NCBI GenBank assembly: GCA_013153965.1
Contig: JAADDJ010000016.1
Location: forward strand, 23,530-87,529
Origin: Thermotogota bacterium
GTDB lineage: Bacteria; Hydrothermota; Hydrothermia; LBFQ01
Length of the DNA stretch: 64,000 bases
Direction: 5' to 3'
Shown here: positions 5,808 to 59,773 of the stretch, in pieces
How positions within the stretch are numbered: the stretch's first letter is position 1
Layout of the letters: every line of letters starts with the position of its first letter
Notes under the pieces: model-generated
What the model saw: only the letters and a program-made list of their open reading frames with translations
What the model was told of the DNA's origin: nothing
The model's database searches: none
Position numbers and translations under genes: made by a program

Positions 5808-5825
5808 GAGCGCATTCCGCCCCCG

Positions 5826-5831
5826 TACAAT
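5826..5831 (+). promoter_or_regulatory. -10 box TACAAT, 6 nt upstream of TTG 5838 (leaderless-type)
   Basis: Sequence CCGTACAATTCCCCC-TTG. No SD is present. Confidence 0.4.
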
Positions 5832-5837
5832 TCCCCC

Positions 5838-44551: not shown

Positions 44552-45340
44552 ATGCTCCTTCTGGTGGGTTATGCGTACGACATCTTCAACCTCGGCTTTT
44601 CGCCTTGGGAGTTGGAGGGCAGGGCCTTCCCCGACTACACCTTCTATTCGGCCGTATTCAACTACGCCGCCGGAACGTACGGGGGCGTGGTGGGTGGAAA
44701 CTACGGGAGCTTCGGAGGGCGGATGAAGTTTTTCACGTCGGGGAACATGGACATGACCGATGAGGAGGGGAACGTGGTGGGGAGTTTCACATCCAACTTC
44801 GTCTCGTTGGGGGGGCTCTACGGAACCACGTTCAAGGGATTCTCCGTCAGGGGAGGCTTGAGCCTCCTATACGTCTCCCTCTCCCCCCAGAGTAGGGGGA
44901 TAGCACTGGGCCTTCTGGGGGATGCGAGACGTAGGTTTCCCAAGGAGTGGGGCCACTGGGATGTATGGGCCACGCTGGATGGCTTGGGATACGAAGTCGT
45001 ACCTGCTGGGCTGTACCGCACCCTCACGTCCTTCCGCGCCTACGCCGGAGCGGGTGTCAAGTTCCACCGCCTCATCTCCTACCTGCAGGCGGCGTATTAC
45101 TACGTCGGGGGACCGGCCCTGATGCTCGGAGCGGGGCTGGATTACGGGCTGCTTCGGGTTCTCGTGGGGTACGACTCCCACTACTCGGACCTCTACGGGG
45201 GCTACGGTCGGGATAGGCTCGCCGGTACCTACTTTTCCTTCTCCCTCTCCTACAACCGCTTCCACTTCTCGTACGCGTACAACCCTATGGGTCTCCTCGG
45301 GGACAGACACATTCTCGGCGTGGCCTACGACCTGCGATGA
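44552..45340 (+). CDS. Hypothetical outer-membrane beta-barrel-like protein
   Basis: Gly/Tyr-rich alternating hydrophobic strands (GLSLLYVSLS, AYAGAGVKF, FSFSLSYNRFHFSYAY). Only a 12-aa hydrophobic N-terminus. I recognise no family. Confidence 0.45.
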   Translation: MLLLVGYAYDIFNLGFSPWELEGRAFPDYTFYSAVFNYAAGTYGGVVGGNYGSFGGRMKFFTSGNMDMTDEEGNVVGSFTSNFVSLGGLYGTTFKGFSVRGGLSLLYVSLSPQSRGIALGLLGDARRRFPKEWGHWDVWATLDGLGYEVVPAGLYRTLTSFRAYAGAGVKFHRLISYLQAAYYYVGGPALMLGAGLDYGLLRVLVGYDSHYSDLYGGYGRDRLAGTYFSFSLSYNRFHFSYAYNPMGLLGDRHILGVAYDLR

Positions 45341-46266
45341 GGGTCGTGGTGGCTCTGGGGGGCAACGCCCTCCGCAAGAAGGGAGAGGGGTTTGACTACG
45401 AGACCCACTACGATAACGCGCTGCTCACCTTTCAGAGGTTGGCCGAGGCAGGCTTCTTCTCAAACGACAGAAAGGTGGTCATAACCCACGGGAACGGTCC
45501 CCAGGTGGGTATGGAGTTCGTGCGCCACTTCCTGACGAAGGAGCGGTTTCCAATGTATCCCCTCCATGCCCTGACGGCTTCCACCCAAGGGTGGATCGGA
45601 TACATATTGGAGGCGACGCTCCGCCGTACCCTCAGGGAGAGGGGGATGGAGCGGGAGGTGGCGACCCTGATGACGATGGTGGAGGTATCCCCGGATGATC
45701 CGGCCCTGCGCGACCCATCCAAGCCCATCGGGGAATTCATGACGAAGGAGCAGGCTATGGAGCTCTCAATACTCACGGGCCTCCCCGTCAAGGAGGATGC
45801 GAACAGGGGATGGAGGCTCGTCGTTGGCTCCCCCAAACCCCTCAGGGTGATAAACTCCCGCATAGTTAAAGCCCTCATGGAGGCCGGTGTGATCGTCATA
45901 GCCGCCGGAGGAGGAGGAGTCCCAGTGAAGGGGGATTTTTCGGGGGTACCGGCGGTCATTGACAAGGACAGGGCGAGCGCCCTCCTCGGCCTTGAGGTGG
46001 GGGCGGATGCCCTCTACATCCTCACGCAAGTTCCCGCCGTCTATATAAACTACGGAAAGCCCGACCAACGTCCCCTCCGGAAGGTCAGAGTGGAGGAGTT
46101 GAAGAGGTACGCCGAAGAGGGACACTTCGCACCCGGAAGCATGCTACCCAAGGTGGAGGCCGCCATATCCTTCGTGGAGGGAGGGGGTAAGCGGGTGGTC
46201 ATAACCTCCCCCGACTTCGTGGCGGAAGCCGAGAGGGGTGAGGCGGGAACCGTGGTGCTGCCGTGA
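45337..46266 (+). CDS. arcC: Carbamate kinase
   Basis: MRVVVALGGNAL..VVITHGNGPQVG..GGGGVPV..IDKDRASALL. The start overlaps the upstream stop (ATGA). Confidence 0.8.
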   Translation: MRVVVALGGNALRKKGEGFDYETHYDNALLTFQRLAEAGFFSNDRKVVITHGNGPQVGMEFVRHFLTKERFPMYPLHALTASTQGWIGYILEATLRRTLRERGMEREVATLMTMVEVSPDDPALRDPSKPIGEFMTKEQAMELSILTGLPVKEDANRGWRLVVGSPKPLRVINSRIVKALMEAGVIVIAAGGGGVPVKGDFSGVPAVIDKDRASALLGLEVGADALYILTQVPAVYINYGKPDQRPLRKVRVEELKRYAEEGHFAPGSMLPKVEAAISFVEGGGKRVVITSPDFVAEAERGEAGTVVLP

Positions 46267-47651
46267 AACCGACATCCGCGAGGATGGACATTTGGCTCAC
46301 CCTCACGGCCTTGATCTTCCTACTATCGCGGGCCATCCTGTGGATCATTTTGGGCGTCCGGTACGATGCCTCCTCCCTGATATGGGCTTGGCAGCTCTTA
46401 GACCCCCTCTGGCTCAGGAAGGACCTTCTCACATCCCTATGGAACATGCACATGCAACCTCCCCTATTCAATCTGCTGACGGCCGTAGCCCTCCGCTTTC
46501 CGAGTCCATCCCATCTCCTCGCCCCCCTCTTCTTCGCGATGGGTATGGGAACGTCCCTCCTACTCTACGGTGTGGGTGTGAGGAGCGGACTGTCCCGACC
46601 TTTGAGTTTCGCCGTCGTCAGCCTTGTATTTACCTTCAACCCCTCCTCCTTCCTGTACGAGACATGGTACTTCTACACGTATCCGTCCCTATTCTTAACG
46701 GTCCTCCTCTCCTACCTTCTACTACGCTTAAACGACGGATTGACGGTGAGGAGGCTCCTGCCCCCTTTCATCGCTCTCACCCTCCTAACCCTTCTCCGCA
46801 GCAGCTACCATCTCCTACTCTTTCCCCTCCTCGGAGGTGTCCTCCTGTGGCATCATCGGCGCAGATGGAGGATCATATTCGCCGTAGTCCTCTTAACATC
46901 GCTGCCGACGGCGGCGTGGTATCTCAAGAATTTCGCCCTCTTCGGCAACTTCTCGGCCACCAGCTGGACGGGGATGAATTTGAGCCGTCTGATATGGAAC
47001 ATGCCCGGATGGGAGAGGGAGACCTTTTTAAAGCTCCACGAGGAGGGTGTGGTGTCGGCCCTCATGACCGTCCCCCCATTCTCACCTCCCGAGACCTACG
47101 CGTCGCTCCTCAACTGGAGCGGCAGCACGGGCGTGGCCGTCTTGGACTCCATGCGGGAGCCGACGACAGGCTCCCCCAACTACAATCATGCGGTGTATCC
47201 GAAGGTTTCCCGAATCTTGCTGCGGGATAATCTGAACCTCGTACTCCGATTCCCCCTCGCGTATCTCCGGGCCATCCTATCCTCCCTCAAACATTTCACA
47301 TATCCACCCTACGCCTACCCCCTTACGGGTAGATTCCATCTACTGTTTGATAGGGAAAATCTGAAGCGCATATACGGTCTGCGACTGCTGATCCGCCTCT
47401 ACGATGCTCTCTACGGATGGTTGGGGAGGAAACTTCCCGGCATCACCACCCTACTCCTGCTTCTGGCCTTCCTTCTCCTGCTGCCGGGGATGATTCGGCG
47501 TCGCGATGTCGCGCCGGTGGCCGTCCTCCTGCTGTATCTTCTGGTGGTGCATGTGGCCCTTGAGCGGAAGGAGAATATGAGATTCAAATTTCAGTTTGAG
47601 GGCGTAATAACCACGGTCGTGCTCGCCAACTTTCTTAAGAGGCGACGGTAG
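46263..47651 (+). CDS. Polytopic membrane protein, GT-C-type glycosyltransferase-like (GT39/GT83-like)
   Basis: About 10 or more TM helices. The early loop motif NMHMQPPLFNLL resembles the D/H-x-PPL loop of PMT/ArnT-type enzymes. The assignment is weak. Confidence 0.4.
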   Translation: MKPTSARMDIWLTLTALIFLLSRAILWIILGVRYDASSLIWAWQLLDPLWLRKDLLTSLWNMHMQPPLFNLLTAVALRFPSPSHLLAPLFFAMGMGTSLLLYGVGVRSGLSRPLSFAVVSLVFTFNPSSFLYETWYFYTYPSLFLTVLLSYLLLRLNDGLTVRRLLPPFIALTLLTLLRSSYHLLLFPLLGGVLLWHHRRRWRIIFAVVLLTSLPTAAWYLKNFALFGNFSATSWTGMNLSRLIWNMPGWERETFLKLHEEGVVSALMTVPPFSPPETYASLLNWSGSTGVAVLDSMREPTTGSPNYNHAVYPKVSRILLRDNLNLVLRFPLAYLRAILSSLKHFTYPPYAYPLTGRFHLLFDRENLKRIYGLRLLIRLYDALYGWLGRKLPGITTLLLLLAFLLLLPGMIRRRDVAPVAVLLLYLLVVHVALERKENMRFKFQFEGVITTVVLANFLKRRR

Positions 47652-47668: not shown

Positions 47669-47674
47669 TAAAAT
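47669..47674 (+). promoter_or_regulatory. -10 box TAAAAT, 8 nt upstream of ATG 47683 (leaderless-type)
   Basis: Sequence GGCGTAAAATACGAACCT-ATG. No in-frame alternative start lies upstream (TAA at 47608). Confidence 0.5.
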
Positions 47675-47682
47675 ACGAACCT

Positions 47683-49503
47683 ATGCTCTCAATACTGGTA
47701 GCAGGTACGATTCTTTACGAGGGATTTGAGACCTCGGTCCCTCCCGCCGGATGGGAGGTTCTGGATCTCGGTAGCGCTACGGGAGATTCGTGGTATCAGA
47801 CTATGACCAAAGCCCACTCGGGCACCTACTCCGCCAAGGTCACCTACTATCCATCCACCAACACGAAGGACGAGTGGCTCATAACGCCGGCCGTGGACCT
47901 CTCAACCGCCACGAAGGCTTACCTGATATTCTACGAGGATCAGGATTACTGGTCGGGCTACGGGGAGCACCACCAGATCCTAATATCTACCACTTCGCAG
48001 ACGGACACATCAACCTTCACGCTGGTACTTGACATGACACCGACGGACCACACGATAAACGGCTTTGACGGGGATCCTATGATCGTGGATATCTCGGACT
48101 TCGTGGGGAATTCAACCGTCTATATCGCCTTCCGATACACCGGGCTTGATGCCGACAACTGGTACTTGGACGACGTGGAGATATACACCCCCTACAACAC
48201 CGACGCGAAGCCCATGGCTTTGGTTGAGCCTTCGGAGTACGTATCGGGCAGCTTTACCCCGGTGGTGCGGGTACAGAACTACGGTCTGGACACACTAAAT
48301 TCCATTCCCGTACGGCTTATTCTGATGGATCCCTACGGGAACGTGGCCTACGACCAAACGGCCACCGTCTCCGGAGCCTTGGGGTCTATGGACACGGCCT
48401 CGGTGTCCTTCCCGTCATTTACACCCGACAGTCGCTTCTACTACCAGTATCTGGTGATTACGGAGCTCCCCGGTGATGAGAATCCCTCCAACGACACCCT
48501 GAGCGGGTACATATACGCGTACGACAGACCGATGATGGTCCTGTTTGAGAGATTCACGCAGCACAACTGCGGTCCCTGCGCCTCCGCGGACCCCTATCAG
48601 CTGTCCATATACTCCTCCCACGTGGATGCGGAAAATTACAACATCGGCATGATAACCTACCAGACGTGGTGGCCGGGGGCCAACAACGACCCCTTCTACC
48701 ACTACGACACCATGCCGCAGCGCAACAGGGTACTCTACTACAAGGTGAATGCGGTCCCATGGGTCTATATAAACGGCGTGGTCAATGCGTCGTATTACTA
48801 CACCCAGTGGGCGAGCCTCGTGTCCTCCGAGGAGAGCTACCGGACCACACCTCTGGAGTTCTCCTTTGATACGAGCAACAGCCTCCTGTACGAGGATTCG
48901 CTGGGAATACACGGACGCCTAACCCTATCCGCCACACAGGTCGGGGCCATGCTATCCAAAGAGTACAGACTGAGGGTGGTGATAGTGCAGGACAGCGTAT
49001 ATTACAACGCCCCCAACGGCAGCACCTTCCACGTGATGAAGTTCAGGCATTGGATAGACACCTCATTCACGGCCGGAGACACGGGTAGCATCCACACCTA
49101 CACGTTTGACTTCTTCCTGCCTCACCCGGTATGGACGAGCGATCCCGGTCTGGACGTCCATCACATGGTGGCCGTCGCCTTCATCCAGAGCGACGATGAT
49201 CAGAAGGTCTGGGGCGTGGGCACCTTTAACTTCAAGAACGTGGTCTCCGTCGCCGAGAGACCCGGCGGTGGCGACGTGTGGCTGGTCAAGGTCATATCCA
49301 CGAGAGGTGGCATAGACATCTTCTCCTCCGAGGAGAGGGATGCCGAGCTGTCCGTCTTTACCGTGTCCGGTCGCCGGGTGCTAAGCGACGTCTTCAAGGT
49401 CTCCGGCGAGACCCACTACCGCCTCAACCTACCCAAGGGCGCGTACTTCTACAGGCTTAGAATAGGAAGCAGGACATGGTACGGAAAGGTGTTGGTATTC
49501 TGA
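47683..49503 (+). CDS. T9SS-sorted multidomain surface protein: choice-of-anchor-J-like, CARDB-like, thioredoxin-fold CGPC domain, C-terminal sorting domain
   Basis: Domain motifs in order: GFETSVPPAGWEV..SGTYSAKV..DEWLITP..NWYLDDVEIY, then VRVQNYGLDTLNSIPVRL..NPSNDTL, then VLFERFTQHNCGPCASA. C-terminus LSVFTVSGRRV..GAYFYRLRIGSRTWYGKVLVF. Confidence 0.65.
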   Translation: MLSILVAGTILYEGFETSVPPAGWEVLDLGSATGDSWYQTMTKAHSGTYSAKVTYYPSTNTKDEWLITPAVDLSTATKAYLIFYEDQDYWSGYGEHHQILISTTSQTDTSTFTLVLDMTPTDHTINGFDGDPMIVDISDFVGNSTVYIAFRYTGLDADNWYLDDVEIYTPYNTDAKPMALVEPSEYVSGSFTPVVRVQNYGLDTLNSIPVRLILMDPYGNVAYDQTATVSGALGSMDTASVSFPSFTPDSRFYYQYLVITELPGDENPSNDTLSGYIYAYDRPMMVLFERFTQHNCGPCASADPYQLSIYSSHVDAENYNIGMITYQTWWPGANNDPFYHYDTMPQRNRVLYYKVNAVPWVYINGVVNASYYYTQWASLVSSEESYRTTPLEFSFDTSNSLLYEDSLGIHGRLTLSATQVGAMLSKEYRLRVVIVQDSVYYNAPNGSTFHVMKFRHWIDTSFTAGDTGSIHTYTFDFFLPHPVWTSDPGLDVHHMVAVAFIQSDDDQKVWGVGTFNFKNVVSVAERPGGGDVWLVKVISTRGGIDIFSSEERDAELSVFTVSGRRVLSDVFKVSGETHYRLNLPKGAYFYRLRIGSRTWYGKVLVF

Positions 49504-50546
49504 TTCTTGGAGGTCTCATCCTCTTAGGTTGCAGAGGGGATGAGGAGGGAGGGGGGGTGGAGTCCCCCCTCCAGAATCCCGTGGTAGTTGAGCAGATTAC
49601 CAACTACCTCTGCACCCCCTGCAAGGGGGCGGCCGAGATAATAGACTCCCTTGACGAGGCCTTCCCCGACAACGTGGTGGTCGTCAGATACCACGCCGAC
49701 GAGCCCTACGCCGGGGATCCCATATACAACCCCTATACGGATACCGTCCTGAACTTCTACGGCCTGAATACGGCCGATGGCGTACCCATAACCGTCATAG
49801 GTGGGGACTGGAGCGAGCACGGATACGACGATACCAAGAGGGAGGACTATGCGGAGAGATGGTTCAACGTGATGAGGGATAAAGCCTCCCAGCCGCCCAA
49901 GTACAGACCGAGCGTATCCTCCCTGATGGGGGACTCCCTCATCGTCGCTGACGTCATAGTTGAGCCTTCAAAGGCCTCATCTGACGTGGTGCGCACGATG
50001 CTCACCGAGTACGAGGCTCCCCTACCCCCATCCGCAGTGAAGCCCTACTCCAACTACGCTGTCAGGGCCGGAACCAACTCGTCCCACGCCGAGTTCGTCG
50101 TAGATTCCTCTTGGAACGAATCCAACCTGTACATAACCGTCGTCATAAACGACCCCTCCGGGGCCGTCGTGGGTTCCTATCAGGGGAAGGTGGGTACCTA
50201 CACCCTGGAGAATCTGTCCAACGACGGCGATACCGTCGTACCCCTCAACGAGTACTCCATGGTGTATCTACGTATGGAGAATCGGACTGATCAGGACCTG
50301 ACCCTGACCTTCAGGGTCAACGGAATACCCCGCGATTGGAACAACACCATATGCTGGGGGGTGTGCCTGAGCGACACGACGATGATCACCAACACCCTTG
50401 AGGCCGGAGCCTCCACACCGGATCACGGCATGTACTTCTCCGTTTATCCGACCACGGCCGACACCGCCTACATAACCGTTGAGGTGCGATACTCCGACGA
50501 CGAGCGCATATTCAGGCGTTTGAACGTTAAGGTGGTGGCACAATGA
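49476..50546 (+). CDS. Lipoprotein with thioredoxin-fold CTPC domain (paralogous to the CGPC domain of 47683-49503)
   Basis: Signal and lipobox MVRKGVGILILGGLILLGC. VVVEQITNYLCTPCKGAAEI..VVVVRYH..DPIYNPY..VPITVIGG parallels the upstream gene's domain. It overlaps the upstream gene by 28 nt. Confidence 0.6.
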   Translation: MVRKGVGILILGGLILLGCRGDEEGGGVESPLQNPVVVEQITNYLCTPCKGAAEIIDSLDEAFPDNVVVVRYHADEPYAGDPIYNPYTDTVLNFYGLNTADGVPITVIGGDWSEHGYDDTKREDYAERWFNVMRDKASQPPKYRPSVSSLMGDSLIVADVIVEPSKASSDVVRTMLTEYEAPLPPSAVKPYSNYAVRAGTNSSHAEFVVDSSWNESNLYITVVINDPSGAVVGSYQGKVGTYTLENLSNDGDTVVPLNEYSMVYLRMENRTDQDLTLTFRVNGIPRDWNNTICWGVCLSDTTMITNTLEAGASTPDHGMYFSVYPTTADTAYITVEVRYSDDERIFRRLNVKVVAQ

Positions 50547-50956
50547 TGTGGATACTGGCATTCGTGGCCACGGACATATACGGCAACCGGATAAACGTGG
50601 ATAGCCTGATGAGGGAGAAGCACGTCATCCTTGACTTCTGGGCCACGTGGTGCGCGCACTGCGACGAGGAGCTGGATAAGGTCCATGAGGCCTTCAAGAA
50701 CAGGGACGACGTGGCCATAATAGCCATAAGCCAAGACTCCAAGCGGAATCTAAATCGCGTGAGGCAGATGGCCAAGTCCCACGGTTGGGATTTTCCCATC
50801 ATCATAGACGAGGGTAAGCGAATCTCATCCCGATACGGGGTCTTCGGCCTCCCCACGGTCGTGGTGTTTGAGAGGGGAGGCAAGATGAAGAGGAAGATAT
50901 TCGGCTTCAATCCTCGTCTGGTGGATATGATCAAGGAAGCCTTGGGCCTGAGATGA
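50543..50956 (+). CDS. TlpA/ResA-like thiol:disulfide oxidoreductase (thioredoxin family)
   Basis: Motifs HVILDFWATWCAHCDEEL..VAIIAIS..YGVFGLPTVVVFERGGK. ATGA overlap with the upstream gene. Only 9 hydrophobic residues precede the domain. Confidence 0.8.
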   Translation: MMWILAFVATDIYGNRINVDSLMREKHVILDFWATWCAHCDEELDKVHEAFKNRDDVAIIAISQDSKRNLNRVRQMAKSHGWDFPIIIDEGKRISSRYGVFGLPTVVVFERGGKMKRKIFGFNPRLVDMIKEALGLR

Positions 50957-52239
50957 CGGCTATACTGGCCTTCAGCCTGTCCTACGGCGGGATTCTCTGG
51001 TACGCCGACAGCATAAAGAGTTTGAACGACCTAAAGATGACGCTCTATCCCCACCCATCGCTTGAGATGTACCTGCACCTGCGGGACTACAGACCCTACG
51101 CCCCCGCATCCATACACGGCGACACCTACCGGTTGGGCGTCTTCCGCTTCTTCGCCCGATACACCCGGGGAGATATGAGCCTGTCGCTGGGAGACGAGCC
51201 CCTGACCTTCGGCAGGGGGCTATCCCTATTCCTCGCCGACGACGAAAAGGCCCTCCTTGAGGGTACGCTCCGGGGCCTCCACCTGAGCCGCTCGTGGATG
51301 CGACTCTACGGGGGGCTCAAACGCAGGTGGATATACTACTCATCCGACAACGATACCATGCTCCTCGCCGGAGCGACCCTCACCCCCTCATTGGGGGACG
51401 TTTCCTTGGGGCTCAACGTCGGGGCCTACAACCTGTACGGCCGGGATGGAGCGAGCGGCATGATAGCCGGCTCCTACGCCTCCGGGAAGTTCGGTCCCGT
51501 ATCCATATACGCCGAAGGTGCCCTGCGCGACGGGTACGACCTCTTCACATACGGCAGGAATTTGGGCTACGCCCTCTACGGGAACCTTGAGATCTCCCGA
51601 GGGAGCATAGTCCTTGGAACGGAGTTGAAGGATTACTACCGCATCGGGCAGGAGTTCAACCTTCCGGCCCCCGGAAACGGCTACGGCCTCCTTCCCTCCG
51701 ACGGTAGGGACGAGTGGGGAGCCAACCTCTACTTCTCCTACGGAACCCTAAATCTGGAGTTGGCCCGTGCGTACTCCCACGATATGGACCACCTGATGGA
51801 TTACTACGCCCTCTCCTACTACACGGATTGGCGACGATTTACCCCGAAGATCGGAGCACACCTGCTGGACTGGAGCGAAAACCTGAACGAGCGTAGAGCC
51901 TTCCTTGAGATCAAGTACAACGCTCCCCTCGGCATCATCGCGTACGCCGAGTACAGGACGAGATACCTCAAGGGAGTCGGAGACTGGGAGAGTCAGCCGT
52001 ACGCCTCCCTGAGTCTCATATACGGGGGCATCACCCTATCTCTCTCCTACCGCCGCTATATGATCACGGGCAAGACCGACAGGGTGGCCGAGTTCTCCTA
52101 CGACAACTTCAGATTCCTGCGGCTCTTCGTCAGCTGGGGAGAATTCTCGGGTGACATAGTTTGCTCCTCGGGTGTGTGCAGATACGAGCCCCCCTTCTCC
52201 GGCCTCAAGTTGGGCTTGAATCTCTATTTCGTTCTGTGA
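50953..52239 (+). CDS. Hypothetical beta-barrel outer-membrane protein with C-terminal CSSGVC motif
   Basis: Alternating-strand, Tyr/Gly-rich sequence. C-terminus GDIVCSSGVCRYEPPFSGLKLGLNLYFVL. ATGA overlap with the TlpA-like gene. Confidence 0.5.
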   Translation: MTAILAFSLSYGGILWYADSIKSLNDLKMTLYPHPSLEMYLHLRDYRPYAPASIHGDTYRLGVFRFFARYTRGDMSLSLGDEPLTFGRGLSLFLADDEKALLEGTLRGLHLSRSWMRLYGGLKRRWIYYSSDNDTMLLAGATLTPSLGDVSLGLNVGAYNLYGRDGASGMIAGSYASGKFGPVSIYAEGALRDGYDLFTYGRNLGYALYGNLEISRGSIVLGTELKDYYRIGQEFNLPAPGNGYGLLPSDGRDEWGANLYFSYGTLNLELARAYSHDMDHLMDYYALSYYTDWRRFTPKIGAHLLDWSENLNERRAFLEIKYNAPLGIIAYAEYRTRYLKGVGDWESQPYASLSLIYGGITLSLSYRRYMITGKTDRVAEFSYDNFRFLRLFVSWGEFSGDIVCSSGVCRYEPPFSGLKLGLNLYFVL

Positions 52240-52263: not shown

Positions 52264-53334
52264 ATGAGCAGGAAGGTTCAGTTCCCGGCTATAGGTAAGA
52301 TTTCGCCGGAGTTCTTTGACGAGTACATCTTCCCATACCTTGGGGCCAAGCGGGAGGAGGTCATCGTACCTCCCCAGCACGGCGTTGATACCGGCGTGGT
52401 GCGCATAGGCAACGGGAAGGTGCTCGTATTCACCACCGACCCCATATACATACTCCCGGCCTACGGTTGGGAGAAGGCGGCCTGGTTCGCTTGGCACATA
52501 CTCGCCTCGGACGTGGCCACGTCCGGTTTTCCCCCCACCTACATAACCGCCGACTTCAACCTACCCATGGAGATAACCGAGGAGGAGTTCGCCACCGTCT
52601 GGAAGGTGTGGGACAGGGAGAGCAAGAAGTACGGCGCCGCAGTCGTGGCCGGCCACACGGCCCGGTATCCCGGGACCGCCTATCCGATGGTGGGAGGGGC
52701 CACCTTCATCGCCCTGGCCGACGAGGACAAGTACCTGACACCCAAGATGGCCCGTCCCGGCGACGCCCTGATCATCACGAAGGGGCCCGCCGTGGAGGCT
52801 ACGGGGATATTCGCCAGCCTATTCCCCAACTACATCTCCGAGAAGTTGGGACCGGAGATAGCCGAGCAGGGTCAGAGGCTCTTCTACAAGATGAGCACCG
52901 TGGATGACGCCCTGACGGCCGTCTCCGTAGGCTACAGGGATGAGGGCGTTCGGGCCATGCACGACGCCACCGAGTGCGGGATTCTGGGAGGCATATACGA
53001 GCTGGCCGAAGCGTCCGGCGTGGGCGTGATATACCACAAGGACCGAACGCCCATCCAACCCGGCGTTCTGGAGATAACCTCCCTCTTCGGCATGGAGCCC
53101 TTCTCCTCCATCAGCGAGGGAACGCTGATAATGGCGGTGGTACCCGACAAGGCGGACGAGGTCGTTAGCCGGCTCAAGGAGAGAGGGATAGACGCCGCCG
53201 TAGTCGGCGAATTCCTCCCCAAGGAGAAGGGAATGTGGGTTGTTGAGGGAGGCAGGAGGAAGCCTCTGGAGCACCCGAGGGTGGATCCCTTCTGGTCCGC
53301 GATTGACAGGGCACTCTCCGAGGGGTTGAGTTGA
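52264..53334 (+). CDS. AIR-synthase-related (PurM/HypE/ThiL superfamily) protein
   Basis: Motifs GVDTGVVRIG..VFTTDP..HILASDVATSGFPP..VVAGHTARYPG, and a C-terminal domain with HDATECGILGGIYELA. Confidence 0.65.
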   Translation: MSRKVQFPAIGKISPEFFDEYIFPYLGAKREEVIVPPQHGVDTGVVRIGNGKVLVFTTDPIYILPAYGWEKAAWFAWHILASDVATSGFPPTYITADFNLPMEITEEEFATVWKVWDRESKKYGAAVVAGHTARYPGTAYPMVGGATFIALADEDKYLTPKMARPGDALIITKGPAVEATGIFASLFPNYISEKLGPEIAEQGQRLFYKMSTVDDALTAVSVGYRDEGVRAMHDATECGILGGIYELAEASGVGVIYHKDRTPIQPGVLEITSLFGMEPFSSISEGTLIMAVVPDKADEVVSRLKERGIDAAVVGEFLPKEKGMWVVEGGRRKPLEHPRVDPFWSAIDRALSEGLS

Positions 53335-53513: not shown

Positions 53514-53526
53514 ACAGACTTCAGGT

Positions 53527-53599
53527 GGGCCGTTAGCTCAGTTGGCAGAGCACCGGATTTTTAATCCGGGGGTCGCAGGTTCGATCCCTGCACGGCCCA
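53527..53599 (+). tRNA. trnK: tRNA-Lys (anticodon UUU)
   Basis: Acceptor GGGCCGT/ACGGCCC, D arm GCTC-AGTTGGCA-GAGC, anticodon arm CCGGA-TTTTTAA-TCCGG, T arm GCAGG-TTCGATC-CCTGC, discriminator A. No CCA is encoded. Confidence 0.9.
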
Positions 53600-53601
53600 T
53601 T

Positions 53602-54876
53602 TTGTCTTTCATAGTAGTGCGCGGAGGAAAGCCCTTAGAGGGAAAGGTTCGCATAAGCGGGGCCAAGAATGCCGCCCTCGCCATACTACCCGCCACGATC
53701 GTAGTTAGGGGGGAGGTGAAGGTAGCCAACGCTCCGAGAGTGGCGGACGTTGAGACGATGGTCAATCTGTTGGCGGAGCTGGGTGCCGAGGCGCGGCGGG
53801 AGGAGGACGGTACGGTGGTGTTATCAACGGATGGACTCAACACCTACGAGGCCCCTTACGAGTACGTGAGCCGAATGAGGGCATCCATATACGTTCTTGG
53901 CCCCCTTCTGGCGAGGTTCGGAAGGGCAAAGGTGGCTCTTCCGGGCGGTTGCGCCTTCGGTCCCCGTCCCATAAACTTCCACATATACGCCCTCCAGTCC
54001 ATGGGGGCGAAGGTGTGGGTGGAGCACGGATACGTTATGGCGGAGGCTCCCCAAGGTCTCAGGGGAACCACGATAGCCTTTGAGAGGAAGTCGGTGGGAG
54101 CCACCATCCACACCATGATAACGGCCATACTGGCCGAGGGCGAGACGACGATAGAGAACGCGGCCATAGAGCCGGAGGTCGTGGATGTGGCCCACTTCCT
54201 GCGGCGATGTGGAGCCCGCATAGAGGGAGAGGGGACGGATAGGGTCGTGGTGGAGGGTAGAGGGAGGGACGGATTCCTGAAGGCCTGCTCCCACTACGCC
54301 GTCATTCCAGACAGGATAGAGACAGCCACCTTCCTGATAGCAGGCTTGATAACCCGTGGAAGGGTTGAGATAGAGGGAGCCCTCCCCGAGCATCTCACGG
54401 CCGTGTTGAACAAACTTCGGGAGGCGGGGGCGAAGATGGAGGTGAATGAGGACAGGATAGTCGTCCTACCGTCCGGCAGATTGCAGGGGAGGGACGTGGA
54501 GACGGCCCCCTACCCCGGCTTCCCCACGGACGTTCAACCCATGTACATGGCTCTGATGAGTGTGGCTAAGGGTGTGAGTGTCATAAGGGAGGGGATATAC
54601 CCCGACAGATTCAAGCACGCGTACGAGCTCATGAGGCTCGGAGCGAGCATAGATGTGGGAGATGGCTACGCCGTCGTTAAGGGGGTGAATAGGCTCACAG
54701 GGGCACCGGTGATGGGTACGGACCTGCGGGGTACGGCCGCTTTGGTCCTCGCCGGTCTGGTGGCGGAGGGAGAGACGGCCGTGGGTGGATACTCCCACCT
54801 GGCGCGGGGTTATGAGAACTTCATCGGAAAGATGAGGGGATTGGGAGCCCAGATATCCCTCAAGAACAGTCTCTGA
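53602..54876 (+). CDS. murA: UDP-N-acetylglucosamine 1-carboxyvinyltransferase
   Basis: (M)SFIVVRGGKPLEGKVRISGAKNAALAILPA and active-site LPGGCAFGPRPINFH. The start is set at TTG 53602 because the track ORF (53542) runs through tRNA-Lys. GTG 53617 is an alternative. Confidence 0.88.
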   Translation: MSFIVVRGGKPLEGKVRISGAKNAALAILPATIVVRGEVKVANAPRVADVETMVNLLAELGAEARREEDGTVVLSTDGLNTYEAPYEYVSRMRASIYVLGPLLARFGRAKVALPGGCAFGPRPINFHIYALQSMGAKVWVEHGYVMAEAPQGLRGTTIAFERKSVGATIHTMITAILAEGETTIENAAIEPEVVDVAHFLRRCGARIEGEGTDRVVVEGRGRDGFLKACSHYAVIPDRIETATFLIAGLITRGRVEIEGALPEHLTAVLNKLREAGAKMEVNEDRIVVLPSGRLQGRDVETAPYPGFPTDVQPMYMALMSVAKGVSVIREGIYPDRFKHAYELMRLGASIDVGDGYAVVKGVNRLTGAPVMGTDLRGTAALVLAGLVAEGETAVGGYSHLARGYENFIGKMRGLGAQISLKNSL

Positions 54877-54883
54877 AGGAGAG

Positions 54884-54894
54884 AATAAAAAAAA
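54884..54894 (-). terminator. T8 tract directly after tRNA-Glu (possible tRNA-stem-dependent terminator)
   Basis: The minus strand reads ..TGGGGGCG-TTTTTTTTATTC. The GC-rich acceptor/T-arm helices precede the U-run. Confidence 0.35.
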
Positions 54895-54969
54895 CGCCCC
54901 CACCGGGATTTGAACCCGGGTTTCGTGGCTGAGAACCACGCGTCCTGGACCTGGCTAGACGATGGGGGC
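54895..54969 (-). tRNA. trnE: tRNA-Glu (anticodon CUC)
   Basis: Acceptor GCCCCCA/TGGGGGC, GTCTAGCCAGGTCCAGGAC D region typical of tRNA-Glu, anticodon arm CGTGG-TTCTCAG-CCACG, T arm CCGGG-TTCAAAT-CCCGG, discriminator G. Confidence 0.88.
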
Positions 54970-54980
54970 GTTGGGTGAGT

Positions 54981-55010: not shown

Positions 55011-55331
55011 TCAATCTATCACCTCCCCGCACTTCTTGCAGTACCGGACCTTCCTCCCATCCTCCGTGAAGCGGAAACCCACCCTCGTGGGTTGCCCGCA
55101 CTTGGGGCACACGAGCATGAGCTTGGACAGGTAGATGGGAGCCGGTACCTCCTCAACGGTACCCTCCTCCAGACCGTGGCGCCTACCCCTGTGCTTCTTG
55201 ACCAGATTCACGCCATCCACGACGGCCTTCCCCTTACGGGGGAACATGCGCAGGACCTTCCCCTGATGTCCCTTCCACTTGCCGGATATGACCATTACGG
55301 TGTCGCCCCTCTTTATCCTGAAAGCCATCAC
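55011..55331 (-). CDS. rplX: 50S ribosomal protein L24 (Cys4 zinc-ribbon variant)
   Basis: [22 protein letters not shown] is the KOW domain. C-terminal [22 protein letters not shown]. Confidence 0.93.
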
Positions 55332-55714
55332 AGTACCTCCGGTGCCAGAGAGACTATCCTCATAAAGCCCTTCTCGCGCAGCTCACGGGCCACGGGACCG
55401 AAGACGCGGGTACCCTTGGGCTCGCCTATCTGATTTATCAGGACCACGGCGTTGTCTCCGAAGCGGATGTATGAGCCGTCCCTGCGCCGTATCTCCTTCT
55501 TGGTGCGCACTATCACGGCCTTGTGGATCTCACCCTTCTTGGCCGAGGCGTTGGGTATGGCCCTCTTTATGGACACCACCACGACGTCCCCCACGTTGGC
55601 GGCCACCCTTCCGCCCTTGCGGCCGCTACCCTTGAGGACCTTAATTATCAGGGCCTCCTTCGCCCCGGTGTTGTCTGCTACCACCACGTACGACAGTTCA
55701 GGCAGATTCCTCAT
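55328..55714 (-). CDS. rplN: 50S ribosomal protein L14
   Basis: Motifs [68 protein letters not shown]. Confidence 0.96.
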
Positions 55715-56006
55715 TTTCCAAGACCTCCTTTGCTATCTCCTCAAGCACGGGGGCTTTGCGCAGTATCTTGACCAGGCGCCACCTCTTGAGCTTGGAGAGA
55801 GGTCTGGTCTCCATAACCTCAACGAGATCCCCCACATGGCTCTCGTTGTTCTCATCATGCACGTATATCTTCTTGCGGACCTTAACGTACTTGCGGTACT
55901 TGGGGTGCATCTTCATCCTGTATATCGCCACCACGCGGGTCTTGTTCATCTTGTCGCTCACGACTATACCCCTAAGCACCTTCCTGCGGCCCCTCTGCTC
56001 CTTCAT
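55698..56006 (-). CDS. rpsQ: 30S ribosomal protein S17
   Basis: Motifs [57 protein letters not shown]. Confidence 0.95.
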
Positions 56007-56206
56007 AGCTTAACCCCCTTCTCCCTTAGAACCGTTAGGACTCGCGCTATCTCGCGCCTGTAATACCTTACCAAGTTCTTGTCCTCCAACTGTCCGAGCT
56101 TCTTCTTAAAGCGGGCATCGCGCAGCTGCGCCCTCAGGACCCGGAGACGGGCCTTAAGCTCATCTACGTCCATGGCCCTAAGATCCTTGGCCTTGGTGGG
56201 TCTCAT
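56003..56206 (-). CDS. rpmC: 50S ribosomal protein L29
   Basis: [29 protein letters not shown], and its position between rplP and rpsQ. Confidence 0.93.
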
Positions 56207-56622
56207 CTTCCCACCTCCTTGGTGGATACTATCTTGGTACGGACGGGAAGTTTGGACGCGGCTATCCTTAGGGCCTCGTAGGCGTCCTCCTCCTTGGCAC
56301 CGGCTATCTCAAAGAGGATGGTTCCGGGCTTGACGACCGCGTACCACGCATGCACGTCTCCCTTACCGCCGCCCATACGGACCTCGGCCGGCTTCTTCGT
56401 GTAGGGGCGATGGGGGAAGATGCGTATCCAAAGGCGCGCCTTCTTGCCGACGGTTCGCACTATGGCCACGCGGGCGGCCTCTATCTGTCGGGCGAATATC
56501 CTCCCCCTGTCCATGCTCTTTAGGGCGTACTCGCCGAACTCTATGCGATTACCGCTCGTGGCGACACCCTTGAGCTTCGCCCTGTGCTGCTTCCTCCACT
56601 TGACTCGGCGGGGCTGCATCAT
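56203..56622 (-). CDS. rplP: 50S ribosomal protein L16
   Basis: Motifs [34 protein letters not shown]-like [22 protein letters not shown]. Confidence 0.96.
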
Positions 56623-57296
56623 AGTTTCACCTCCTTCTTACCTCTTAGGATGTCGCCCTTGTATATCCACACCTTCACGCCTATGGTACCCCATTTGGTG
56701 AAGGCGGTGTCGTATCCGTAGTCTATGTTGGCGCGGAGAGTCTGGAGCGGGACCCGACCCTTTATGTACCACTCCTTGCGGGCTATCTCCGCTCCGCCTA
56801 TACGTCCCTTCACCTGCACCCTGATACCCTGGGCCCCCATGCGCATGGCGGCATATACGGCCCTCTTCATCAACCTGCGGTGATAGACCCGCTGCTCCAG
56901 ACGGCGGGCTATGTTGTACGCGACCAGCTGGGCGTCCAGCTCGGGATGCACTATCTCCTGATGCTCAACGAATATCCTCTTCTCCGGACCGCCGAATGTG
57001 GCATTCAGGGCCTCGCGGAGGCCTTCTATGTTCTTGCCTCCCTTGCCGATTATCACGCCGGGGCGGGCGGTGTGTATGGTCACATGCACGTTCAAGCCGA
57101 CACGATTCACCTCTATGCGGGAGATCTGGGGATCGTTGGGTAGCCTGCGGTAGTAGTCGGTTATGAACTTCCTTATCTGGTAATCCTCAAGCAGGTTCTG
57201 AACGTACTCCTGCTTGGTCTCGGCGTACCACGTGGATTGCCAAGGTCGGAAATAACCCGTCCTAAGCCCTATGGGATTGGCTTTCTGGCCCATCAC
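56619..57296 (-). CDS. rpsC: 30S ribosomal protein S3
   Basis: Motifs [49 protein letters not shown]. Confidence 0.97.
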   Translation of the reverse strand: MMGQKANPIGLRTGYFRPWQSTWYAETKQEYVQNLLEDYQIRKFITDYYRRLPNDPQISRIEVNRVGLNVHVTIHTARPGVIIGKGGKNIEGLREALNATFGGPEKRIFVEHQEIVHPELDAQLVAYNIARRLEQRVYHRRLMKRAVYAAMRMGAQGIRVQVKGRIGGAEIARKEWYIKGRVPLQTLRANIDYGYDTAFTKWGTIGVKVWIYKGDILRGKKEVKL

Positions 57297-57718
57297 TTAA
57301 CCTCCTTCTTTTCGGGCAGAACCACCACGGTGATGTGGGAGGTCCTGCGTCTGAATATTCCGTTTCCACCGAAGCGGGCGGGTTTCACGGCGGGCTTGGG
57401 TATCTTCCACATCGGTCCCCTATCAACCTTCACGATGGCTATGCGGAGCTTGGGGTATAGGCTCTCAAGGTCCGTGCCGGGAGCGAACTTGTCCCTGTAG
57501 GAGGCGACGGCGGCTCGCAGGACCTTGCGCATGATCCTCGCCCCCTTCTTGGGGGTAAATCGCAGGACGTAATCGGCCTCCTGCGCGTTCATTCCCTTTA
57601 TCAGGTCGGCTATCAACTTCATCTTCTTCGGGGAGATGCGGGCCCTACGTAGGGCGGAGTATCCCCCCAACGCCTTCCACTCTCTCTTGCTAAGCTGTCC
57701 GAACGGCCTCGTCTTCAT
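57293..57718 (-). CDS. rplV: 50S ribosomal protein L22
   Basis: Motifs [52 protein letters not shown]. Confidence 0.95.
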
Positions 57719-57999
57719 CTCCTACCCGCCTTCTTTCCCTCTTTGTCCTTGTGGCCTCCGAACTTGCGCGTGGGGGCGAACTCTCCGAGGCGATGGCCCA
57801 CCATCTCCTGCGTGATATAGACGGGTATGAAGGTCTTGCCGTTATGGACCAAGAAGGTGAGCCCTATGAACTCGGGCAGGATCATGGAGGCTCTGGACCA
57901 GGTCTTTATGGGGGATTTGTCCCCCTTCTCCAAAGCCTTCCGAACCTTTTTTAGCAGTTTGGGATGTACGTACGGTCCCTTCTTTAAACTCCTCGCCAT
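57715..57999 (-). CDS. rpsS: 30S ribosomal protein S19
   Basis: Motifs [69 protein letters not shown]. Confidence 0.97.
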
Positions 58000-58003
58000 A
58001 TCT

Positions 58004-58852
58004 TTACTCCTTTGAGCCGTATCCTATCCTCCGACGCTTGACGATGAAGGTGTCGGAGGGCTTGCGCTTGCGGCGCGTCTTGACTCCTCTCGCGATCTTA
58101 CCCCAAGGCGTCTTGGGTATCTTACCCTTGGTTCGGCCCTCACCTCCTCCGTGGGGATGGTCCACGGGGTTCATGGCCACGCCGCGCACGGCGGGTCTGC
58201 GACCGAGCCACCTCTTCCTTCCGGCCTTACCCAAGGTGACGTTCTCGTGGTCCACGTTGGAGACCTGACCTACGGTGGCGTAGCAGTTGTGGTGGAACTT
58301 GCGGATCTCCTTGGAGGGGAGCTGGACGTAAATCCAGTTCTCGTCCTTGGACAGGATGGTGGCGTAGGTTCCAGCGGCCCTCACCAGCTGGCCTCCCTTT
58401 CCGGGTATCATCTCCAGATTGTGTATGGGGGTACCCTCGGGTATCCTCTCAAGGGGAAGGGCGTTTCCTACCTTTATGGGCGCATCGGGACCGGCCATCA
58501 CCTCGTCCCCGACCTTCAGGCCCTCCGGGGCCAATATGTAGCGCTTCTCCCCATCCCTGTAGGCTATCAGCGCTATGAAGGCCGTCCTGTTGGGATCGTA
58601 CTCTATGGACTTGACCACTCCGGGAACGCCCACCTTATCGTGCCGGAGGAAGTCTATTATGCGATACTTCCTCTTGTTCCCGCCGCCCCTGTGGCGGACG
58701 GTGATCCTTCCCTGATTGTTCCTCCCGGCCTTCTGCTTCTTGGGCTTGGTCAGGGACTTCTCCGGCTCCTCCTTCGTTATGTACGCGGAGTAATCCACGA
58801 CGCTCATCCATCTGCGGCCGGGAGTGTAGGGTCTATACTTCTTTATAGGCAT
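58004..58852 (-). CDS. rplB: 50S ribosomal protein L2
   Basis: Motifs [55 protein letters not shown]. Confidence 0.97.
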
Positions 58853-58853
58853 A

Positions 58854-59150
58854 TCACACCCCCAGATCTATCCTATGACCCTCCGCCAAGGTCACTATGG
58901 CCTTCTTGTAGCGGCGGGTCCTACCCATTATGCGGCGACGGCGCAGGTCCCTACGAGGCTTGGGCTTGTAGTTCATCGTATTGACCTTCAGGACCTTAAC
59001 CCCGAAGAGCCTCTCAACGGCCTCCTTTATCTGTATCTTGTTGGCGTCGGGATGGACGATGAAGGTGTATTTGTTGTACCTGTCCCTGAGGTTCAGAGCC
59101 TTCTCCGTAAGCACCGGCTCTATGATGACGTCGTTGTAGTCCAGCTTCAT
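58854..59150 (-). CDS. rplW: 50S ribosomal protein L23
   Basis: [44 protein letters not shown]. The ATG overlaps the rplD stop (ATGA). The longer track ORF is rejected. Confidence 0.93.
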
Positions 59151-59773
59151 AGCAGTCTCTCCTTCAGCTTCTCTATAGCCCCATCCTCGGCGACCACGTA
59201 GTCGGACCACAGGACGTAGTAGGTGTTGAGTTGGTCCGCGTGGAGGACCTCAACGTCGGGTATGTTCCGGGCCGATAGGTAGAAGACTCGGTCGTAGTCC
59301 TTGGGGACGAAGAGGACATTCTTACCCAAGAGTCCCACGCTCTTGAGGAAGTTATAGACGGTCTTGGTCTTGGGCTTATCCATGCGGGTACTCTCAAGGA
59401 TTATCACCCTGTCGTTCTGAGCCCTGTCGGCCAAGGCCATACGCAGGGCCAACCTCTTAGCCCGCTTGGGCATCCGTATGTAGTACTCCTTGGGGCGGGG
59501 ACCATGTGCCTTTCCACCCCCGACGAAGATGGGGGCGTACCTATCCCCATGGCGGGCCCTACCCATGTGCTTCTGGGGCCATATCTTGCGCCGGGAACCC
59601 TTAACCTCACCGCGGGTCTTGGCGTGATGGGTCCCCTGACGCTGGTTGTAAAGGTAGGTCCTGACGGCCTCCCACAGGAGATGGCCGTCGGGTTTTATTC
59701 CGAAAAAGTCCTCGGGAAGGTCCCGCTCGCCCGTCTTCTCTCCGGCCAGGTTGTATATCGGGGCCTTCATCAC
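59147..59773 (-). CDS. rplD: 50S ribosomal protein L4
   Basis: Motifs VRTYLYNQRQGTHHAKTRGEVKGSRRKIWPQKHMGRARHGDRYAPIFVGGGKAHGPRP. Confidence 0.96.
   Translation of the reverse strand: MMKAPIYNLAGEKTGERDLPEDFFGIKPDGHLLWEAVRTYLYNQRQGTHHAKTRGEVKGSRRKIWPQKHMGRARHGDRYAPIFVGGGKAHGPRPKEYYIRMPKRAKRLALRMALADRAQNDRVIILESTRMDKPKTKTVYNFLKSVGLLGKNVLFVPKDYDRVFYLSARNIPDVEVLHADQLNTYYVLWSDYVVAEDGAIEKLKERLL

Follow-up and report, generated by a model that had tools for sequence, protein, structure and literature searches.

How might a Gram-negative bacterium place redox-active cysteine or selenocysteine residues on its outer face, and keep them in working order? What is understood of extracytoplasmic thiol-redox chemistry comes mostly from the periplasm and its Dsb, Ccm/ResA, TlpA-Sco and Scs systems; for the cell surface, HBP35 of Porphyromonas gingivalis is essentially the sole known case. 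The question is raised by four consecutive genes, here called g1 to g4, within a 64,000-nucleotide stretch of a Thermotogota bacterium genome (Hydrothermota in GTDB; GenBank assembly GCA_013153965.1, contig JAADDJ010000016.1, positions 23,530 to 87,529 of the forward strand), referred to below as the window. They encode a type IX secretion system (T9SS) cargo protein, a lipoprotein, a ResA/TlpA-like thiol:disulfide oxidoreductase and an outer-membrane beta-barrel that is a divergent member of DUF6029 (PF19494). A preliminary description, made from the sequence alone, had proposed that together they form an envelope or cell-surface thiol-redox module.

The conserved cysteines, the co-occurrence of the genes and the thioredoxin folds reported below support that proposal. 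The locus combines a defined gene composition and operon-like coupling with recognizable folds and families, five invariant cysteine pairs, apparent replacement of cysteine by selenocysteine in related loci, and synteny across several phyla. We hold with moderate confidence that it represents an envelope and surface thiol-redox module of the Fibrobacteres-Chlorobi-Bacteroidetes (FCB) superphylum, in which the barrel would act as a platform or conduit, Omp28-type thioredoxin domains would be displayed at the surface, and the TlpA-like enzyme would act as recycler. That the module has a redox role we infer strongly.

Omp28-type domains and their candidate redox cysteines

The CxxC-bearing domains of g1 and g2 had been described as sharing a scaffold, and profile comparison shows them to be homologous, as paralogues: g1 residues 285-519 and g2 residues 35-240 align with an hhalign probability of 99.7% (E 3.3e-25, 207 columns). 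In the AlphaFold2 (AF2) model of g2, this region opens with a beta-alpha-beta-alpha-beta-beta-alpha topology (strands at residues 36-42, 67-73, 105-108 and 112-115; helices at 47-62, 87-95 and 119-137), modeled with a predicted local distance difference test score (pLDDT) above 90. Cys46 and Cys49 precede and begin helix 47-62, so that the CxxC motif lies at the N-terminus of helix 1. To reach more distant relatives we built a profile, A3, from 30 diverse copies of the Omp28-like CxxC domain. It is invariant at both cysteines, at the Glu that closes strand 1, in a DP motif, and at one Pro and one Gly. The invariant proline (Pro79 of the A3 alignment, Pro104 of g2) precedes strand 3 and aligns with the vPT loop of the thioredoxin 1fo5.

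Against PDB sequences, A3 matched 2axo (DUF1223; E 8.4e-10) and the thioredoxins 1fo5 (E 3.4e-7) and 1nho (E 4.6e-6), with both thioredoxin matches spanning the whole domain. Weak matches were obtained to HBP35 (E 4e-3) and to ScsC-type, DsbA-like copper-resistance proteins (6nen and 4gxz; E about 2e-3 to 9e-3), and the Pfam Thioredoxin model run on g2 alone gave E 0.069. The model topology, together with the profile matches to solved thioredoxins, thus bears out the fold proposed for the first two domains: g1 residues 285-400 and g2 residues 35-140 are predicted to be thioredoxin folds. Foldseek searches with the full g2 model returned mostly tandem Ig-like matches (transglutaminase, RbmA), 2axo being the one informative match, and the top phmmer hits of g2 in the PDB, designed "Pizza" propellers, were discarded as spurious, being repeated 8-bit matches to one 30-residue stretch.

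Assignment of these domains to the Omp28 family runs through intermediate sequences. Neither g1 nor g2 of the window matches PF11551 (Omp28) at E<=0.1, and g2 falls below the NCBIfam cut-offs for the Omp28-related selenoprotein (NF045500, 22.4 of 200 bits) and the Omp28 family outer membrane lipoprotein (NF033782, 17.9 of 150 bits). The A3 profile, however, matches PF11551-annotated proteins at E about 1e-34, and relatives in three of the clusters described below (L063, L021 and L037) attain the PF11551 gathering score. By these links of sequence similarity, the g1 and g2 domains are placed in the Omp28 family. Typical Omp28 lipoproteins of 260-280 aa retain the CxxC motif, and their genes adjoin TlpA and DUF6029 genes.

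Both cysteines are present in all 80 unique copies of the Omp28-like domain, drawn from 47 loci, while the intervening dipeptide varies widely. In six aligned orthologous blocks the motif reads [NS]CGPC in g1 and C[TVFA]PC in g2, with both motifs invariant. The cysteines singled out in the preliminary description are thus conserved in orthologues, and two likely selenocysteine variants were found besides. In clusters L040 and L046, from two uncultured bacteria, an in-frame TGA occupies the first cysteine codon (position 2676, TNTS-TGA-GYC, and position 2754, TNTG-TGA-PGC, respectively), giving UxxC; 3′ of the TGA the conserved domain and T9SS tail are intact, and both clusters also hold TlpA-like and DUF6029 genes. 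Omp28 relatives of the module match the NCBIfam model "Omp28-related selenoprotein." Selenocysteine insertion sequence (SECIS) hairpins can be drawn 3′ of both TGA codons, with folding energies no better than those of shuffled sequences (z -0.25 and -1.09). We consider the two proteins likely to be surface-displayed selenoproteins. Where selenocysteine (Sec) and cysteine interchange, the position is known to be typical of a catalytic redox cysteine, and because an in-frame TGA replaces cysteine at the first CxxC position in two loci, this position is probably redox-active. The Sec variants are the strongest single argument for a redox-active CxxC site.

Conservation and distribution of the gene set

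The gene set was found well outside this genome, with differing flanking genes, as co-occurrence of the four genes would lead one to expect. Homologues of g4 are labeled candidate division WOR-3, and in WOR-3 relatives the four-gene block recurs with identical order and overlaps, different flanks and barrel identity down to 37%. All cysteine motifs are invariant across the six aligned orthologous blocks. Judged from these sequences, such recurrence and cysteine invariance are far more than chance would produce.

To survey loci more widely, the barrel motif was scanned in one genome per species, and hidden Markov models (HMMs) of the four families were run on open reading frames (ORFs) from all six frames. 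This yielded 57 loci in WOR-3, Hydrothermota, Calditrichota, KSB1 and Ignavibacteria (including Melioribacter); at one further locus, labeled Bacteroidetes (L055), none of the four HMMs detected a module gene. In 37 of the 49 loci with enough upstream sequence, the gene immediately upstream of the barrel is TlpA-like. The gap between the two is at most 69 nt in 34 of these 37, and stop and start codons overlap in 19 (18 of them by 4 nt). Seven more of the 49 have a TlpA-like gene elsewhere, mostly as the first of the cluster. Omp28-like genes are present in 28 of 31 loci with at least 6 kb of upstream sequence, at about 1.9 per locus. When all neighbors were clustered all-against-all, only the Omp28-like, TlpA-like and DUF6029 families recurred across lineages.

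A search begun instead from Omp28, with the domain profile, returned the same triad on three independent contigs (L068, L069 and L071), two of which also encode extra T9SS-tailed proteins. Since the Omp28-first and barrel-first searches converge on one triad, the co-occurrence is robust and independent of the query. On L071, which looks like a long-read contig, the DUF6029 gene (5249-6891, flanked by those for TlpA and Omp28) is broken up into a 364-aa and a 119-aa piece with some small ORFs besides, probably through assembly frameshifts rather than as a pseudogene. In seven loci of one WOR-3 clade (L021-L026), the barrel gene is followed by a gene for a GltD/YgfK-like NAD(P)H Fe-S flavoprotein of ~540 aa (in L021, 4748-6373), a pyridine nucleotide-disulfide oxidoreductase. 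Its NCBIfam matches include two that fall short of their cut-offs, "diclust_near_Sec" and "putative selenate reductase subunit YgfK."

The DUF6029 barrel

The product of g4, described earlier as a predicted beta-barrel, is modeled by AF2 as an all-beta barrel of about 24 strands (pLDDT 82). Its best Foldseek neighbors are outer-membrane barrels: LptD and two usher pores of 24 strands, PapC and FimD (TMq 0.5-0.59). The protein itself scores 26.7 bits against PF19494 (cut-off 27), over the last 45 positions of DUF6029 only, and 8 of 14 g4 homologues carry a precomputed PF19494 annotation. The family link is clearer through relatives: a g4 HMM matches the L063 barrel, which matches full-length PF19494 at 198 bits, and the Melioribacter counterpart of g4 matches full length (2.7e-58).

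The C-x4-C motif of g4 lies at the tip of the last beta-hairpin, its turn (residues 405-408, with low pLDDT) falling between strands 401-405 and 408-412. The surrounding signature, FSGD[IV]VCSSG[VI]CRYEPPF.G, is the best-conserved stretch of the whole barrel, and the cysteine pair is invariant in 15 g4 homologues. When 1.84 billion representative proteins were searched exhaustively with a profile, 277 barrel relatives were obtained at E<=1e-3; C-x4-C occurs in all 146 of these that were retrieved, at a fixed distance from the C-terminus (mostly F, L, I or Y), although the motif itself adds to the profile score. One side of the barrel has long loops, two of them highly conserved (residues 80-108 and 230-256), and the opposite side short turns. 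The termini and short turns of outer-membrane barrels are usually periplasmic, and by this rule the model would put the C-x4-C pair at the extracellular tip of the last hairpin.

Domain architecture and localization

From N- to C-terminus, g1 comprises a choice-of-anchor J or cleaved-adhesin-like domain, an Ig-like (CARDB-like) domain, the Omp28 unit and a type A C-terminal sorting domain (Table 1). The first of these scores 83 bits against NCBIfam NF038128 (cut-off 30) and 37.5 bits against Pfam PF07675, and matches the Lys-gingipain adhesin domain 4itc in the PDB (E 7.6e-5). The tail scores 28.1 bits against TIGR04183, above the cut-off of 23, in agreement with the earlier identification of g1 as a T9SS cargo. 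The same architecture is seen in a Calditrichota relative (L037), in which choice_anch_J, CARDB, Omp28 and Por_Secre_tail are all matched. A custom HMM of the sorting domain found no additional complete T9SS cargo in the window for comparison of signal peptides.

The AF2 model of g2 (pLDDT 86.2; predicted template modeling score 0.78) consists of the thioredoxin fold at residues 35-140, a beta-sandwich at 146-238 and a second beta-sandwich at 242-355. Its lipoprotein nature, proposed earlier and judged against the lipobox pattern [LVI][ASTVI][GAS]C, agrees with the signal and lipobox MVRKGVGILILGGLILLGC, in which M1 and the lipobox cysteine C19 are invariant among 20 homologues. The residues that follow are basic, then acidic (C-R-G-D-E-E, or C-K-K-K-E-D in relatives). 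A surface lipoprotein export signal with the consensus K-(D/E)2 has been described in Bacteroidetes (PMC5080379). The stretch in g2 resembles this signal, a resemblance only, and because of it g2 may also face outward. The second sandwich carries a fifth invariant cysteine pair, absent from the preliminary description, C293-x3-C297, in the motif [IV]P..W....C...C. This sandwich is also found at loci of Calditrichota, KSB1 and Ignavibacteria, as two to three tandem copies in a separate T9SS-tailed protein, whose gene sits just upstream of the TlpA gene, and the CxxxC sandwich is therefore one more recurring element of the module that is targeted to the surface.

The assignment of g3 as TlpA/ResA-like holds: it contains WATWCAHC and passes three Pfam thresholds, those of AhpC-TSA (PF00578, 62.1 bits, cut-off 26), Redoxin (PF08534, 51.0, cut-off 26.6) and Thioredoxin_8 (PF13905, 47.1, cut-off 27). 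The best solved relative is the ResA structure 4nmu (E 7.8e-19). Scores against the NCBIfam models, among which those for ResA match best, fall below their cut-offs (ResA, 75.8 of 170 bits; TlpA, 26.6 of 230; DsbE, 36.4 of 123), and by sequence g3 is a family-level relative of ResA and TlpA and the orthologue of no named enzyme. WATWC[AN]HC is invariant in the six aligned blocks; one closer relative (L018) has CKHC, and distant orthologues all carry WA[TILV]WCxxC, with CxPC, CxSC or CxYC. Roles in cytochrome c maturation and in copper handling (Sco/Scs) were considered for g3 and rejected, as no such genes are linked.

Export signals differ among lineages. In WOR-3 and Hydrothermota, g1, g3, g4 and a PorQ-like outer-membrane protein begin with only 8-14 uncharged hydrophobic residues (8-12 for g1, g3 and g4 of the WOR-3 clade), such as MLSILVAGTILY in g1 (12 residues), MMWILAFVA in g3, MTAILAFSLSY and MLLLVGYAY, whereas in Calditrichota, KSB1 and Ignavibacteria the orthologous N-termini are classical signal peptides of 20-25 aa. 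Ordinary signal peptides occur in the same window, in g2 and in ORF 2016-3440. The short N-termini may be export signals of a separate, minimal kind, or export may have been lost. That g1 and g4 must be exported suggests that short hydrophobic segments can act as export signals, and since g3 orthologues in other phyla carry classical signal peptides, g3 is probably ancestrally periplasmic. The preliminary description had distributed the thioredoxin folds over three compartments, namely the cell surface, a membrane-anchored lipoprotein and a soluble or minimally anchored form. Of this picture, the T9SS tail is in keeping with the surface location of g1; g2 may also face outward, and the placement of g3 is uncertain.

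The PorQ-like protein is encoded by a 262-aa ORF, 44552-45340 (+), 2.3 kb upstream of the operon. It matches the T9SS PorQ and PorV models at E 4e-9 and 1e-4 (36 of 220 and 22 of 90 bits, both below cut-off), and adjacency to the module is not conserved at other loci.

Operon organization and neighboring genes

The four overlap-coupled ORFs are present as described earlier, g1 and g2 sharing 28 nt and the pairs g2/g3 and g3/g4 4 nt each (ATGA). Among the motif positions given at that time, those of CGPC, CTPC and CAHC are correct; the interval for the barrel motif covers CSSGVC alone and not CSSGVCRY. The public gene call for g2 (P0001, 329 aa) begins 27 codons late, omitting window positions 49476-49556, and the conserved form is the longer ORF, which bears the MVRK...LLGC lipoprotein signal.

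Table 1. Features of the four-gene locus, with positions in the window and, where applicable, residues of the encoded proteins.
Feature	Position	Strand	Gene and residues	Description
-10-like box TAAAAT	47669-47674	+	5′ of g1	8 nt before the g1 ATG, no intervening Shine-Dalgarno sequence
g1	47683-49503	+		606 aa, T9SS cargo
Choice-of-anchor J/cleaved-adhesin-like domain	47713-48183	+	g1, 11-167	Predicted binding domain, from profile matches
Omp28 unit	48535-49239	+	g1, 285-519	Predicted thioredoxin fold plus beta-sandwich, paralogous to g2
CGPC	48568-48579	+	g1, Cys296 and Cys299	Candidate redox-active site, invariant in orthologues
T9SS type A C-terminal sorting domain	49315-49494	+	g1, 545-604	TIGR04183
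g2	49476-50546	+		356 aa, lipoprotein
Lipidated Cys of lipobox LLGC	49530-49532	+	g2, Cys19	Followed by R-G-D-E-E
CTPC	49611-49622	+	g2, Cys46 and Cys49	N-terminus of thioredoxin-fold helix 47-62
CWGVC	50352-50366	+	g2, Cys293 and Cys297	C-terminal sandwich, across a beta-hairpin; invariant
g3	50543-50956	+		137 aa, ResA/TlpA-like thiol:disulfide oxidoreductase
CAHC	50651-50662	+	g3, Cys37 and Cys40	Within WATWCAHC
g4	50953-52239	+		428 aa, outer-membrane beta-barrel, divergent DUF6029 (PF19494)
CSSGVC (C-x4-C)	52162-52179	+	g4, Cys404 and Cys409	Tip of last beta-hairpin
Short N-termini	47683-47720, 50543-50570, 50953-50990, 44552-44590		g1, g3, g4 and PorQ-like ORF	Also in L001-L034 orthologues

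A generic sigma-70 scan called no promoter 5′ of g1; the -10-like box was recognized by comparison of orthologues, 11 of which have a TAnAAT-like hexamer 8-9 nt before the g1 start codon (TAAACT in one). This phylogenetic footprint fits the earlier remark on a leaderless-type promoter, and we regard the box as the putative promoter of an operon mRNA with little or no leader.

Directly 5′ of the operon, 46263-47651 (+) encodes a polytopic membrane protein of 462 aa that matches nothing in Pfam or NCBIfam. Directly 3′ of the barrel, 52264-53334 (+) encodes an AIR-synthase-related protein, whose matches to the HypE, ThiL and SelD models (E 1e-21 to 1e-15) all fall well short of the cut-offs; because its adjacency is not conserved elsewhere, it is probably unrelated to the module. 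Further downstream, genes for tRNA-Lys(ttt), 53526-53600 (+), and tRNA-Glu(ctc), 54894-54970 (-), flank ORF 53542-54876, whose product looks MurA-like; its listed N-terminus crosses the tRNA-Lys gene, so the true start must lie further downstream. The ORF run at 55011-60435 (-) resembles ribosomal proteins (among others, L24-like 55011-55331, L14-like 55328-55714, S17-like 55698-56006) and is probably an S10/spc cluster.

Proposed function and alternative explanations

We propose that the one to three Omp28 proteins of each locus would reach the cell surface by a T9SS domain, as in g1, or by a lipid anchor, as in g2, and that the DUF6029 barrel, with which they may be physically associated, would serve their thioredoxin domains as an outer-membrane platform or conduit. 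The Omp28 domains would carry out thiol-disulfide or thiol-chalcogen chemistry on extracellular substrates, which the adhesin-like N-terminal domain of g1 would bind. On the periplasmic side, the TlpA-like enzyme would set or recycle the redox state of the module's cysteine pairs, drawing on an inner-membrane electron donor of the CcdA/DsbD type encoded elsewhere.

Several observations weigh against this proposal. Its main weakness is the placement of g3, whose periplasmic location in the window clade is uncertain, only about 6-9 hydrophobic residues preceding the fold; the N-termini of g1 and g4 are equally minimal, and export of these proteins in the window clade rests on them. A periplasmic TlpA-like enzyme, moreover, cannot reach an extracellular hairpin directly, and the topology of g4 was read from the secondary structure of the model only. 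The C-x4-C pair of g4 and the CxxxC pair of g2 could be merely structural disulfides. A fourth conserved partner (CcdA/DsbD or a permease) was sought across the loci and none was found, no CcdA/DsbD gene being linked to the module in any of them. The CxHC motif of g3 in the window clade is DsbA/PDI-like, as would be expected of an oxidase or isomerase more than of a reductase. Finally, RNA-seq runs were sought for evidence of co-transcription, and the sequence was found in DNA assemblies only.

A bolder form of the proposal would make the DUF6029 barrel a trans-outer-membrane thiol-disulfide relay, an outer-membrane counterpart of DsbD, running from the TlpA-like enzyme through the barrel lumen to the C-x4-C pair and on to the surface Omp28 (Sec) domains. 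We think this improbable. If it were true, anaerobic FCB bacteria would gain a powered extracellular disulfide or chalcogen reductase.

The dipeptide of a CxxC site tunes its redox potential, and the His-containing dipeptide of g3 (CAHC or CNHC), as in DsbA (CPHC) and PDI (CGHC), leads to one alternative, an oxidative-folding or isomerase module. Here g3 and the Omp28 domains would form and shuffle structural disulfides in the CxxxC sandwiches and the barrel hairpin, stabilizing the surface proteins of thermophiles with no external substrate involved. The models, which set both CxxxC and C-x4-C across tight beta-hairpins, a typical place for structural disulfides, are consistent with this, as are the hydrothermal or hot-spring sources that record titles give for many of the metagenome-assembled genomes, and HBP35 complements an E. 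coli dsbA mutant (PMC2907840). We nevertheless judge it unlikely. Distant g3 orthologues carry the reductase-typical CxPC, CxSC and CxYC, and folding catalysts should not outnumber their clients, yet each locus encodes one to three thioredoxin-domain proteins, which are themselves surface-exported and include an adhesin-like domain; selenocysteine variants would also be unusual in a mere folding helper. At the other extreme, the locus might hold no redox system at all, the Omp28-like proteins being adhesins or structural surface proteins with structural cysteines, and their linkage to TlpA and the barrel being unrelated. Omp28 is described in Pfam as a putative surface adhesin or receptor, and g1 does carry an adhesin-like domain. 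This account leaves unexplained why CxxC stands at the canonical catalytic position of a thioredoxin fold, why it is invariant while its dipeptide varies freely and is twice replaced by UxxC, and why the TlpA-barrel linkage, with its 4-nt overlaps, persists across phyla; we rank it last, as the least likely of the alternatives, and give it hardly any weight.

Between these stands the capture and uptake, or detoxification, of thiophilic substrates, which we consider slightly less plausible than the folding module. Candidates for the substrate are elemental sulfur, polysulfide, selenite, tellurite, Cu(I), Hg(II) and disulfide-linked peptides. It would be bound or reduced at the surface CxxC or UxxC site and passed inward by the barrel, and the TlpA-like enzyme would complete or reset the reaction. 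The size of the barrel, with its usher and LptD matches, and its two highly conserved long loops suggest a gated channel; uptake systems of Bacteroidota usually pair a surface lipoprotein with a barrel (PMC5080379). The Sec variants in L040 and L046 are compatible with such chemistry. Two further points in its favor are each offset: the A3 matches to the ScsC-type copper-resistance proteins are weak and confined to the CxxC helix, and the GltD/YgfK-like flavoprotein that follows the barrel is restricted to one clade. Against this reading, neither a transporter nor a TonB box or plug domain was found, and none of the conserved neighboring genes encodes an inner-membrane permease.

Significance and comparison with known systems

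With its Omp28-type thioredoxin domains, TlpA-like enzyme and DUF6029 barrel, the gene set gives the question of surface redox chemistry a defined, multi-phylum object of study. It offers a testable role for Omp28 and DUF6029, two uncharacterized families common in Bacteroidota-related genomes, including those of oral and gut species, and carriers are available in culture (Melioribacter and Caldithrix relatives). Literature searches for DUF6029, Omp28, PF11551 and Omp28 selenoprotein returned no description of the module or of a function for it, and no report of the C-x4-C signature of DUF6029 or of its linkage to TlpA and Omp28. The suggestion that no system of this composition had been described therefore stands for the assembled module in the literature found, and for that alone, since Pfam (Omp28, DUF6029) and NCBIfam already catalogue the component families.

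We know of no TlpA or DUF6029 barrel linked to HBP35, which we regard as the closest characterized analogue of the module. It is a surface-located T9SS cargo of P. gingivalis, and the recombinant protein reduces insulin while its C48S/C51S mutant does not (PMC2907840); this cysteine-dependent activity shows that a thioredoxin can work as a T9SS cargo. Like g1, HBP35 (PDB 5y1a) combines a thioredoxin motif, N-terminal in its case, with a C-terminal sorting domain. It differs in also binding haem and is not a member of the Omp28 family; its sequence resembles that of the Omp28-like domain marginally, in the CxxC helix alone (E 4e-3).

The Omp28 family itself, for which to our knowledge no function has been demonstrated, shares its thioredoxin-plus-sandwich unit with g2 and with g1 residues 285-519. 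What g1 adds are the adhesin-like and Ig-like domains and the T9SS tail, and what g2 adds is the CxxxC sandwich. The best solved relative of this unit is DUF1223 (PDB 2axo, Atu2684), which has the same thioredoxin-plus-sandwich layout; the A3 match covers the thioredoxin domain including CxxC, and Foldseek gives a TM score of 0.53 over 223 columns. The 2axo structure is that of a proteobacterial protein from structural genomics with no assigned function, and we know of no barrel or TlpA partner for DUF1223.

With the ResA/TlpA/CcmG reductases, g3 shares the fold and the WCxxC motif. It differs from them in lacking linkage to cytochrome c maturation, Sco or Msr genes, in its xH dipeptide and, in the window clade, in having neither a membrane anchor nor a classical signal peptide. 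For DUF6029 we know of no function. The only paper found to mention this family reports HHpred similarity to the Wzi barrel (PMC9603273); unlike such barrels, those of the module have no conserved polysaccharide-export (OPX) genes at their loci. The DsbD and CcdA pathways, finally, resemble the logic of the relay considered above, in that CxxC proteins carry reducing power across a membrane to thioredoxin-fold enzymes. DsbD does so with inner-membrane helices, whereas the candidate membrane component of the module is an outer-membrane beta-barrel; should that barrel participate in the redox chemistry, it would be a first: an outer-membrane redox relay made of cysteines instead of haems.

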